UHGV virus genome: UHGV-0133264
Length of the DNA stretch: 21,778 nucleotides
Strand: one strand, 5' to 3'
Origin: a virus
In this document: one piece after another, positions 4,189 to 21,778 of the stretch
Numbering within the stretch: position 1 is the first letter of the stretch
Layout of the letters: every line of letters starts with the position of its first letter
Translations under genes and position numbers: made by a program
The notes under the pieces: model-generated
The model's database searches: none
Seen by the model: the letters and a program-made list of their open reading frames with translations, nothing else
Told to the model about the DNA's origin: nothing

Positions 4189-4318
4189 TTAACCGATTCT
4201 ACGAGTAGTCATTTGTTCATTGAGTAGGAATATTGTTGTCTGGGGGGTAATCAGTGTAGGTGGAATGAGGGATATGATATGGTTATCACATAATCAGGTT
4301 GTTTTGAGTAAAACAATA

Positions 4319-15748: not shown

Positions 15749-15849
15749 GGCACTTGTGTGAATCCCTTTTCGGAAGAGATTTTATTGAAAGTCACTTGTT
15801 GACTTTCTCACGAAAAGTAATTTTTTAAATTTTTTATGCGGGGAAGTGG

Positions 15850-20142: not shown

Positions 20143-20475
20143 TTAGTTACCGCTGATAGCGCGGTTGTAATCATTAACGTTGCGATTCTTCCTGTTAATC
20201 CCCATCAGCATCGTTTCTGTATCGAGGATATACGCTGGCAGATCATCAAAATATTCACTGCTAAACTCCGGCATCCTGCACATAAATGCACTTTTGGGGA
20301 CAGGGTGGTTAACCTTTGTCGGCGTCGGCGTTAAATTCGCTGATCGACTCCCGGAGCAACCGCTGAGTGTCAGCAGGAATGCGCTGGCGAACATTACCCG
20401 CCGCAACCAGTTGTTTCTGAACTTCTGCTTTTCGTTCCATTTGCCTGTCAGCATACTTGGCTTGTTCTGATTCAT
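20143..20475 (-). CDS. Membrane lipoprotein precursor (P1 mlp position)
   Basis: Lipobox LLTLSG-C preceded by a basic n-region (KQKFRNNWLRRVMFASAF). The likely start is an internal Met (about 20454 or 20394). Confidence 0.6.
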   Translation of the reverse strand: MNQNKPSMLTGKWNEKQKFRNNWLRRVMFASAFLLTLSGCSGSRSANLTPTPTKVNHPVPKSAFMCRMPEFSSEYFDDLPAYILDTETMLMGINRKNRNVNDYNRAISGN

Positions 20476-20731
20476 TTTTCACTTCCTGGCTGTGAAAATG
20501 TTGATCTGCTTTGTTCATCGTCTCAATGGTCTGGTTAAGATCCATTATTGACTTATCACGCTCCTTAACAGCCTGATCAAGACTGCCAATTTTCTCCAAG
20601 GCTTGCTTTAGCTGATAACGTTCCCATGCAAACCCAGCACCAACAAGTGCGCAAATCAGAACAAGAACACCAGTAGCAGCAAGTTTCTCCTTCAAAGACA
20701 AAGCTGTTTTTAACGTAGAAAAGAATGACAT
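20309..20731 (-). CDS. Membrane-anchored coiled-coil protein, periplasmic candidate (P1 ppfA position)
   Basis: 140 aa. N-terminal hydrophobic anchor (LAATGVLVLICALVGAGFAW) followed by a charged helical region. AGGAGG Shine-Dalgarno. Its 3' end overlaps the lipoprotein gene out of frame. Confidence 0.55.
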   Translation of the reverse strand: MSFFSTLKTALSLKEKLAATGVLVLICALVGAGFAWERYQLKQALEKIGSLDQAVKERDKSIMDLNQTIETMNKADQHFHSQEVKNESEQAKYADRQMERKAEVQKQLVAAGNVRQRIPADTQRLLRESISEFNADADKG

Positions 20732-20770
20732 GTCTTCCTCCTGAAGAAAAATTATCTGTGAAGTCCTTTG

Positions 20771-21616
20771 TTACTGTGCAGCCTTATTTAATTCATCAAG
20801 AACAGAATCAGGAACCAAAGCTGCGACTGCGCTGGCTGTGCTGGCCTTATTTGCTGATGCTTCTGCCAGCGCGGTACCGATAGCATGGTTATAAGCAGTT
20901 ATGGCTACGCTGGCGCTTTCCTTCGCTCGTTCATACTGCTGTTGCAATGCTGCTACCGGTACTGTTGTCTGGTCGAAAAAAGCACCAAATTGTTCAGTTG
21001 CTTCCTTCAGTGCTTCAACTTGTTGTTCTGTCAGTGATGGTGGGGGAGTGACTGCGCCACCACCGGAATCAGAGCCTGACGAGCTGCCTGAGCCTGCGTT
21101 AAGGGTCTGGTTAATGTCCCCCATAGCAGCGATTAAACTCGACGTATTAAGCGTATTTACAGCGTCCTCAAGCGATTTCGTTGTAGTCGCGTCGCCAATG
21201 GCAATAGAGATCGGCAGTTCTGAAACTTCTCGCTCATTAGCACGACAGTAAACATCCCAACCAATATCGAGTTGAAGGAGCATTGACAGATCAGCATAAC
21301 CAGCCAACAGGTCAGCGTGCTGAGTTGCCAGCCCTCCAATATTCGTTAAACCGGTTGCGGTTGTTCTGATCGTTGAAACATAGCTGGTAATAGTGTCGGG
21401 ATAGACAATTGTATCCAGAATTAATCCGGTCAATTCTTCTGCAAGCAGTTTTGCCGTGTTAGCACTGTTTCGTGCCGATGTTATGGCACCAGGTGTTTTC
21501 ATCCCACCGGCGGCGGCCAATTTCTTATATGCGGATAACTGGTAGTCTTTTTCCAGCATGATATCTCCTAACTTACCTGAACCAGACCGTCTCCGGCTGC
21601 AACGGTAGAGCCGCAT
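20771..21616 (-). CDS. Hypothetical protein with central Gly/Ser-rich linker (P1 upfB position)
   Basis: Listed 281-aa ORF. The likely start is Met 20 at 21559 (MLEKDYQL...), preceded by AGGAGATATC. Contains GSGSSSGSDSGGGAVTPPP. Confidence 0.55.
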   Translation of the reverse strand: MRLYRCSRRRSGSGKLGDIMLEKDYQLSAYKKLAAAGGMKTPGAITSARNSANTAKLLAEELTGLILDTIVYPDTITSYVSTIRTTATGLTNIGGLATQHADLLAGYADLSMLLQLDIGWDVYCRANEREVSELPISIAIGDATTTKSLEDAVNTLNTSSLIAAMGDINQTLNAGSGSSSGSDSGGGAVTPPPSLTEQQVEALKEATEQFGAFFDQTTVPVAALQQQYERAKESASVAITAYNHAIGTALAEASANKASTASAVAALVPDSVLDELNKAAQ

Positions 21617-21778
21617 GAAACAGGATCACCAACGCATACGATCCCTTTCCCGTTGACGGTAAACCATGCCCTGGTTGATATAGCTTGCCCGCCGTGCGTG
21701 CTGTTCCCATCGGTATGTTGTGCATATTGCTTACCATCAACTAACACTTCGACTCCGTTGACTTTAAGTAGTGGAGAT
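21568..21778 (-). CDS. Partial gene (5' end outside window) with PAAR-like C-terminus, possible tail-spike tip protein
   Basis: Minus-strand reading gives ...VDGKQYAQHTDGNSTHGGQAISTRAWFTVNGKGIVCVGDPVSCGSTVAAGDGLVQVS-stop. The pattern resembles a PAAR repeat. The stop is followed within 10 nt by the next gene's Shine-Dalgarno. Not in the ORF track because it has no start in the window. Confidence 0.4.
   Translation of the reverse strand, partial: SPLLKVNGVEVLVDGKQYAQHTDGNSTHGGQAISTRAWFTVNGKGIVCVGDPVSCGSTVAAGDGLVQVS

Follow-up and report, generated by a model that had tools for sequence, protein, structure and literature searches.

PAAR tips in general carry additional proteins, and this principle extends to UpfC of the P1-like phage-plasmids. 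The closest well-described phage system is T4, in which assembly does not depend on the tip protein gp5.4, which nonetheless confers a fitness advantage and is indispensable on deep-rough LPS mutants (PMC12407873). The connection between the two phages dates back to the annotation of the P1 genome, in which upfC carries a note that amino acids 10-93 are 31% identical to the product of phage T4 ORF5.4, and gp5.4/UpfC is the only T4-P1 tail protein pair found by BLAST (PMC12407873). In RefSeq, the product of P1 upfC is named “PAAR motif of membran proteins”. Gonzales et al. identified UpfC as a gp5.4-like spike tip by HHpred in 2022, and reported that deletion of upfC left plaquing unaffected and that UpfC was undetected in LC-MS/MS of P1 virions (PMC9024508). 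Consistent with the deletion, genome-wide CRISPRi found upfC, upfB, ppfA, mlp, and upfA to be non-essential (PMC10695390). The tip has now been solved: cryo-EM placed monomeric UpfC on the trimeric gp5 needle (PMC12810830), and a separate study fitted an AlphaFold2 model of monomeric UpfC on the gp5 needle in cryo-EM (bioRxiv 10.1101/2025.07.21.665459).

The product of the next gene, UpfB, was put on the tip in 2026, when cryo-EM described it as a “three-trimeric tripod” on the P1 spike tip (PMC12810830). (Structures called “tripod” in other myophage papers are unrelated.) The PAAR tip and its partner were thus already known in P1. To this we add comparative-genomic support for the partnership, namely strict adjacency of the two genes in about ten lineages and their contiguity with the genes for hub and spike in Vibrio relatives. 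We also offer an explanation for the separation of the pair from the P1 tail genes and evidence on the start codon of upfB.

Source and Gene Content of the Window

The stretch of DNA analyzed here (21.8 kb, hereafter the window) is 96-97% identical to phages P1 and P7 across its entire length, in an alignment that spans sit, gene 23, parAB, repA, and upfA, and runs up to upfC. Because the surrounding DNA is 96-97% identical, we consider the window to come from a P1/P7-like phage-plasmid relative and not from P1 itself. The region under study corresponds to P1 coordinates 63982-65063, where the P1 annotation has upfB (P1_gp065) and upfC (P1_gp066, 94 aa). A total of 616 plasmid records, most of them phage-plasmids of E. 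coli and Salmonella, contain the same stretch; those nearest to the window are 98% identical to it, and all close relatives carry the 94-aa upfC. The final 4 nt of the window (21775-21778) do not align with any P1-like record, the nearest plasmid records included, and the first codon (S) of the upfC fragment is therefore unreliable.

The features of the region are listed in Table 1. The original prediction had the gene pair lying next to a plasmid replicon and among genes of unknown function. The replicon (upfA, oriR, repA, parA, and parB) indeed comes next downstream. The description of the neighborhood is only partly correct, since ppfA and mlp, which follow upfB, are an Rz/Rz1-type spanin pair, with matches to PHROG_89 (E 6.9e-24) and PHROG_30284 (E 1.3e-76), “Rz-like spanin”.

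Table 1. Features of the upfC-upfB region, in coordinates of the window.
Feature	Coordinates	Strand	Basis
upfC 3' part, codons 26-94 of 94 plus stop	21568-21778	-	Translation, PF05488, PHROG_281, 9vyi_A, P1 annotation
upfC-upfB junction	21560-21569	-	Sequence read directly
upfB, 262 aa plus stop	20771-21559	-	Translation, PHROG_1559, AlphaFold, PMC12810830
Gly/Ser linker of UpfB, residues 156-168	21056-21094	-	Translation, pLDDT
ppfA and mlp, same orientation, downstream of upfB, not spike tip	20143-20731	-	PHROG, translation, RefSeq
ppfA, N-terminal membrane helix	20309-20731	-	PHROG, translation
mlp, overlaps ppfA, lipobox LTLSGC	20143-20475	-	PHROG, translation

The UpfC Fragment and Its PAAR Fold

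The minus-strand translation of 21568-21777 is SPLLKVNGVEVLVDGKQYAQHTDGNSTHGGQAISTRAWFTVNGKGIVCVGDPVSCGSTVAAGDGLVQVS, ending at a TAG stop codon (21570-21568). The window end cuts the gene, leaving 69 residues, and the PAAR-like motif that had been noticed at the C-terminus of this partial gene is present exactly as quoted. From residue 2 to residue 69, the fragment is identical to PDB 9vyi_A (residues 27-94, E 1.2e-42), the chain named UpfC in the cryo-EM structure of the P1 baseplate, with a full length of 94 aa. The fragment also matched PHROG_281 “PAAR motif” (E 1.6e-22), T4 gp5.4 in the comparison with PDB sequences (E 3.5e-6), and, weakly, VCA0105, a PAAR protein of the Vibrio cholerae T6SS. 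The profile search against Pfam PAAR_motif (PF05488), proposed earlier as a check, returned 27.5 bits for the fragment (E 3.8e-6) against a gathering score of 27.0, while full-length P1 UpfC scored 26.0 bits, marginally under the gathering score. Most full-length UpfC homologues have a precomputed PF05488 match.

A profile score barely over the threshold, with that of the full-length P1 protein below it, could be taken to mean that a truncated reading frame resembles the motif by chance and contains no real PAAR domain, as could the absence of literal Pro-Ala-Ala-Arg residues, which in UpfC are replaced by VEVL and GIVC. The same replacement of the literal residues is also seen in T4 gp5.4. 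Against a chance resemblance stand the identity to a solved PAAR-fold chain (9vyi_A), the PHROG_281 match, the superposition on five solved PAAR proteins, and the conserved metal-ligand positions, the last two of which are described below. The 9vyi_A identity and the Foldseek superpositions refute this reading, and we assign it a negligible probability.

The window by itself covers 69 of the 94 residues of UpfC, and the fold was modeled on a full-length homologue. Full-length homologues of the fragment were collected, 18 of them were aligned, and the homologue P0135, with 89% identity to the fragment, was modeled with AlphaFold. The model is all-beta with a pLDDT of 91.4, and its top Foldseek matches in the PDB are PAAR proteins only: the P1 baseplate (9vyi; TM 0.92, rmsd 1.1 Å), the tip of Klebsiella phage KP1 (9f4b_BA; TM 0.91, rmsd 1.8 Å), T4 gp5.4 (4ku0_D; TM 0.88, rmsd 1.9 Å), VCA0105 (4jiv_D; TM 0.85, rmsd 2.0 Å), and E. 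coli c1882 (4jiw_D; TM 0.84, rmsd 1.9 Å). The PAAR fold, the absence of which would have refuted the original prediction, is thus present in the full-length protein, both in the solved 9vyi structure and in the model (TM 0.84-0.92).

When 16 UpfC lineages are aligned, H14, H46, H53, and C80 (P1 numbering) are present in all of them and fall in the same columns as the H/H/H/C positions of T4 gp5.4. The window includes three of these four conserved His/Cys positions (H46, H53, and C80). In PAAR proteins, the metal is reportedly bound close to the apex by three His and one Cys, and we predict from the aligned positions that H14/H46/H53/C80 form a His/His/His/Cys metal site in UpfC. The repeats can be followed in the same manner: NGVEVLVDG...H and NGKGIVCVGDPVSCG of UpfC align with DGIPAARLGD...H and DGKPAARVGDAVDCG of VCA0105, so that the two C-terminal repeats of UpfC match the two PAAR repeats of VCA0105 column for column. 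Taken together, we are almost certain that the fragment comes from UpfC, the PAAR-type spike tip of a P1-like phage-plasmid, and comprises its C-terminal 69 residues.

The upfC-upfB Junction and the UpfB Protein

The start of upfB had been placed 9 nt after the stop of the PAAR gene, which is correct because the TAG stop at 21570-21568 is followed by an 8-nt spacer (GAGATATC, 21567-21560) and then by ATG at 21559. An AGGAG ribosome-binding site at 21569-21565 overlaps the upfC stop codon and lies 5 nt ahead of this ATG. The RefSeq-type start of upfB is instead an ATG at 21616, which gives a product of 281 aa and an open reading frame overlapping upfC. We rejected this longer version for three reasons: position 1 of the PHROG_1559 model aligns with residue 1 of the 262-aa product, the N-terminus MLEKDYQL is kept in UpfB homologues down to 50% identity, and a 51%-identical relative has an in-frame TAA 12 nt upstream of its upfB ATG. 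For nearly all full-length members of the family, the length assigned by gene callers is 255-262 aa. These sequence comparisons favor the 262-aa start (ATG 21559), and the annotated start of upfB is probably 19 codons too long.

UpfB matches PHROG_1559 over its whole length (E 2.5e-133, residues 1-262 on model positions 1-263). It belongs to a small family, for which 76 profile matches were found at E<=0.001 in a search of 1.84 billion representative proteins; full-length members are 236-265 aa, and the remaining matches are shorter fragments. The AlphaFold model of UpfB, built with a 14-sequence alignment, is all-alpha with eleven helices (pLDDT 80.6, pTM 0.76). The flexible Gly/Ser linker that had been read from the translation corresponds to the GSGSSSGSDSGGG run, and residues 158-170 are predicted to be disordered (pLDDT < 50). 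This linker joins an N-terminal and a C-terminal helical region, and varies in length and composition among UpfB homologues, being Pro/Thr/Ala-rich in distant ones.

The same prediction had found no recognizable enzymatic motif in this protein, and none of the searches contradicts it. No Pfam family matched UpfB at threshold (the best score was 15.5 bits against a gathering score of 35, with coiled-coil-like families below threshold only), and no PDB sequence matched below E 0.85. Foldseek returned no match at E<=0.001 either in the PDB, where the hits were generic long-helix proteins (E>=0.016, TM<=0.3), or in BFVD (best E 3.5e-3, TM 0.3-0.4). The BFVD matches, to uncharacterized and DUF7217 phage proteins, were treated as not significant at E 3.5e-3. 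Likewise, UpfB did not match any T6SS PAAR/VgrG adaptor or chaperone family or fold in Pfam or by Foldseek against the PDB and BFVD, and neither a membrane segment nor a signal peptide was found in it.

Conservation of the Gene Pair

To see how general the pairing is, we compared 34 loci encoding UpfB-like proteins, many of them near-duplicates, which represent about ten lineages below 70% UpfB identity. They include enterobacterial phage-plasmids with UpfB 50-58% identical to that of the window, Vibrio elements of 87-89 kb in which UpfB is detectable at the profile level only, and IMG/VR viral contigs of 14-92 kb with UpfB 25-31% identical. (A scan of viral contigs with P0087 returned no match.) All 34 loci have a 94-96-aa UpfC-type PAAR open reading frame directly upstream of upfB on the same strand. 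The gap between the two genes is -1 nt in 8 of 15 representative loci, where stop and start codons overlap (ATGA, TAATG, or TGATG), 2, 6, 8, or 9 nt in another six, and 36 nt in the remaining one. The tight coupling proposed from the window, where the ribosome-binding site sits at the 8-nt spacer, is supported by the adjacency in all 34 loci, with gaps ranging from -1 to 36 nt.

The genes are linked while their products diverge at different rates. Across these loci the identity of UpfC to P1 UpfC is 56-84% and that of UpfB to the window protein is 25-57%, which indicates that UpfB evolves about twice as fast as the cap. The synteny supports a physical partnership between UpfC and UpfB independently of cryo-EM, and it does not tell a structural partner from an assembly factor.

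The genes on the other side of upfB could suggest a different association, in which UpfB works with the downstream lysis genes, e.g., as a lysis regulator, and its adjacency to the PAAR gene is mere gene order. In the window and in enterobacterial relatives the ppfA/mlp spanins are directly downstream of upfB, and a GH108 endolysin and a holin-like gene lie downstream in Vibrio relatives. However, the gap to the PAAR gene is -1 to 9 nt in nearly all lineages as opposed to 30-50 nt to the next gene, and a late-promoter-like motif is located at 20751-20772, between upfB and ppfA. The absence of a membrane segment or signal peptide in UpfB and the published density that locates UpfB on the spike also argue against a role in lysis, which we regard as very improbable.

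Separation From the Tail Genes

It had also been remarked that the pair lies away from the main tail operon, and the P1 map bears this out. The minus-strand genes 26-25-7-24-6-5 of P1 are transcribed from the late promoter LP26, in a unit that ends at 73704. Between genes 6/5 and upfC-upfB there is an 8.6-kb block of early genes on the plus strand, containing the C1-controlled uhr, hrdC, dmt, tRNAs, tciABC, ban, and dbn, with minus-strand plp and upl located inside the block between the tRNA and tci genes. Beyond the block, from 65063, the minus strand continues with upfC-upfB-ppfA/mlp-upfA. A search for a P1 upfC promoter on this strand between upfC and uhr, a region outside the window, gave neither a match to the late-promoter pattern nor a sigma-70-like site.

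The Vibrio relatives have a different arrangement. There, genes for a gp24-like baseplate protein, a gp6-like hub (31% identity, E 5e-54), a gp5-like spike (35% identity, E 3.5e-37), the PAAR protein, and the UpfB-like protein are contiguous, with no gaps, and the UpfB-like gene is followed by a 95-aa open reading frame and then by the GH108 endolysin and holin-like genes mentioned above. The simplest reading of this gene order is that upfC-upfB is the former end of a hub-spike operon that was split off by insertion of the early block. The distance of the pair from the tail operon would then be due to the inserted early genes and not to a separate function. One IMG/VR contig has a gp5-like fragment at a distance of 3.4 kb upstream from its PAAR gene, and the size of the interruption therefore varies.

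UpfB as a Probable Tip-Associated Protein

The tight coupling to a partner noted in the original prediction agrees with the published structure, in which UpfB is seen as three trimers on the spike tip (PMC12810830). This assignment was made by fitting an AlphaFold3 trimer into medium-resolution density (PMC12810830), and the three trimers correspond to nine UpfB copies proposed per particle. LC-MS/MS of purified P1 virions yielded 23 proteins, which include gp6 (3 copies) and PmgG (6 copies) but not UpfB (PMC9024508). The absence of UpfB from that list is weak evidence, because gp5, gp26, and UpfC were likewise missed (PMC9024508) and because UpfB has few Lys/Arg residues, so that most of its tryptic peptides, as read from the translation, are very long.

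Alternatively, UpfB may be a cytoplasmic assembly factor or chaperone that stabilizes the PAAR cap or loads it on the gp5 needle and is then released. Adaptor and chaperone proteins of the T6SS do likewise for PAAR or VgrG cargo. The strict PAAR-UpfB adjacency and the translational coupling would suit such a chaperone equally well as a structural partner, and a protein released after assembly would be in line with the LC-MS/MS result, with the independent P1 baseplate preprint, which does not mention UpfB (10.1101/2025.07.21.665459), and with the PDB, in which no UpfB chain is deposited. On the other hand, the tip density in cryo-EM is fitted by the UpfB trimer model, neither T4 gp5.4 nor other PAAR tips are known to require a factor of this kind, and UpfB matches no T6SS adaptor family and no Pfam family at threshold. 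Deletion of upfB caused no plating defect, which also argues against a needed loading factor, although the same is true of upfC; neither gene has a laboratory phenotype, whether by upfC deletion (PMC9024508) or by CRISPRi (PMC10695390). On balance, we consider a chaperone unlikely, and regard UpfB as reasonably likely to be a tip-attached virion protein.

Based on these data, we propose with good confidence an overall account in which UpfC caps the gp5 needle and UpfB most likely docks on the cap. The UpfC monomer is a small conical beta-structure, predicted to be held by its His/His/His/Cys metal site, and it caps the needle, a trimeric gp5 beta-helix in the center of the baseplate, whose blunt end it would sharpen. 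UpfB would be translated from the same message, via the ribosome-binding site overlapping the upfC stop, and its two helical regions connected by a flexible linker would dock on the PAAR cap, where it is reported as three trimers. Upon sheath contraction, UpfC would lead the tail through the outer membrane, and UpfB would enter the envelope together with the spike. What UpfC is, how it folds, and where it sits are established, as are the linkage of the two genes and the dispensability of both; we infer the co-translation, the delivery of UpfB with the spike, and any role of UpfB in penetration.

By analogy with T4 gp5.4, UpfC probably makes DNA delivery more efficient when the host envelope is altered. 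In the laboratory, UpfC and UpfB are both accessory, and they may become important on certain envelopes, as T4 gp5.4 does. A further step would be to view UpfB as the phage counterpart of T6SS PAAR cargo, brought into the envelope ahead of the DNA and acting there as a host-specific penetration or host-range factor, a view that we find possible but rather doubtful. If it is true, an effect of UpfB should be visible only on particular envelopes, similar to that of gp5.4 on deep-rough LPS mutants, and a fast-evolving, cap-borne UpfB would be conserved from enterobacterial to Vibrio P1-like elements.

Comparison With Known Spike Tips

The locus is most similar to that of P1 itself. UpfC of P1 and of the window share genomic position, neighbors, and orientation, and the 68 alignable residues are identical; they differ in that the window has codons 26-94 only and that its four terminal bases are not those of P1. 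The same holds for UpfB: the P1 protein (P1_gp065, PHROG_1559) occupies the same position downstream of upfC, and the window UpfB is 98% identical to the commonest E. coli cluster. In RefSeq P1 UpfB has 281 aa from an ATG overlapping upfC, whereas the evidence from the window favors 262 aa.

T4 gp5.4 (4ku0_D, 5iv5) has the same fold as UpfC (TM 0.88, rmsd 1.9 Å) and a similar size (97 vs. 94 aa), with conserved His/His/His/Cys positions and a sequence identity of about 30%. Both proteins are monomers sitting on a trimeric beta-helix, and both are non-essential in the laboratory. The two systems differ in the needle below the tip, as P1 gp5 is without the lysozyme domain of its T4 counterpart, and in the partner, as the cited T4 literature does not describe an UpfB-like gene or attachment to the tip.

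The T6SS proteins VCA0105 (4jiv_D) and c1882 (4jiw_D) also share the conical fold of UpfC (TM 0.85 and 0.84 respectively). These two are components of secretion systems, whereas UpfC is a phage virion protein. The way in which additional proteins are carried differs as well: the partner of UpfC is a separate small helical protein, and neither a toxin domain fused to the tip nor an effector served by a known adaptor.

Genes Downstream of upfB

The original prediction had placed upfB, the gene following the PAAR-type spike-tip gene upfC, among neighbors of unknown function, a description that no longer applies to the next two genes, ppfA and mlp. The ppfA product has a membrane helix at its N-terminus and a coiled-coil-like body, while the mlp product carries a lipobox (LTLSGC). 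Together with their matches to Rz-like spanin families (PHROG_89, 6.9e-24; PHROG_30284, 1.3e-76), these features identify the two genes as a two-component spanin pair.

Features on the minus strand around upfB
Feature	Window position	Strand	Description
Alternative upfB start region	21560-21616	-	RefSeq ATG 21616 vs ATG 21559
Late-promoter-like site AACAAAGGACTTCACAGATAAT	20751-20772	-	P1 late-promoter pattern, 2 mismatches
ppfA + mlp	20143-20731	-	Overlapping, different frames; Rz-like spanin PHROG matches

Between the upfB stop codon and the ppfA ATG lies a site resembling the late-promoter pattern AACAARTGACT-N5-TANAAT, which we derived from P1 LP23 and LP26. Elsewhere in the window, the pattern scan found just two sites without any mismatch: LP23 itself, at 15779-15800 (-), and another at 4196-4217 (-). 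At a tolerance of up to three mismatches, chance alone would yield 0.4 matches per window. The site is annotated in P1 solely as a portion of a predicted sigma-70 promoter, and it may drive late expression of the spanin genes.

The upfB Start Codon and the Window End

In the RefSeq record of P1, upfB encodes 281 aa and has a 49-nt overlap with upfC. The downstream ATG, giving a predicted protein of 262 aa, is instead favored as the probable start by sequence conservation, by the PHROG profile, and by a stop codon that lies in frame upstream of it in an enterobacterial relative (L003). At the truncated end of upfC, the window's four terminal bases (21775-21778) do not align to any P1-like phage or plasmid record, and the end translates as S-P-L-L-K vs. 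E-S-E-P-L-L-K in P1. With only 4 nt involved, this mismatch may equally reflect an artefact of the contig end or a difference of one codon.

UpfC-type PAAR proteins are named “alanine racemase” in several NCBI records (P0130, P0133, P0134, P0151, and P0152), as is the upfC region of SJ46; the name looks like a propagated annotation error.

PAAR-UpfB Pairs and Gene Order in P1-Like Elements

A broader set of P1-like elements, comprising IMG/VR viral contigs of 14-92 kb (L012-L037), retains the PAAR-UpfB pair, with a stop/start overlap in most, even though their UpfB is just 25-31% identical to the window protein. In the two loci inspected (L012 and L036), an ORF of ~150-170 aa comes next after the pair.

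We also compared gene order between P1 and Vibrio relatives. In P1, the late operon 26-25-7-24-6-5 (L011, 5105-9856) and upfC-upfB (L001, 5771-7022) share a strand and are split by an 8.6-kb block from uhr to dbn, consisting of early genes mostly on the opposite strand, whereas in the Vibrio relatives the genes encoding gp24-like baseplate, gp6-like hub, gp5-like spike, PAAR, and UpfB-like proteins are contiguous (L008, 2216-5768).
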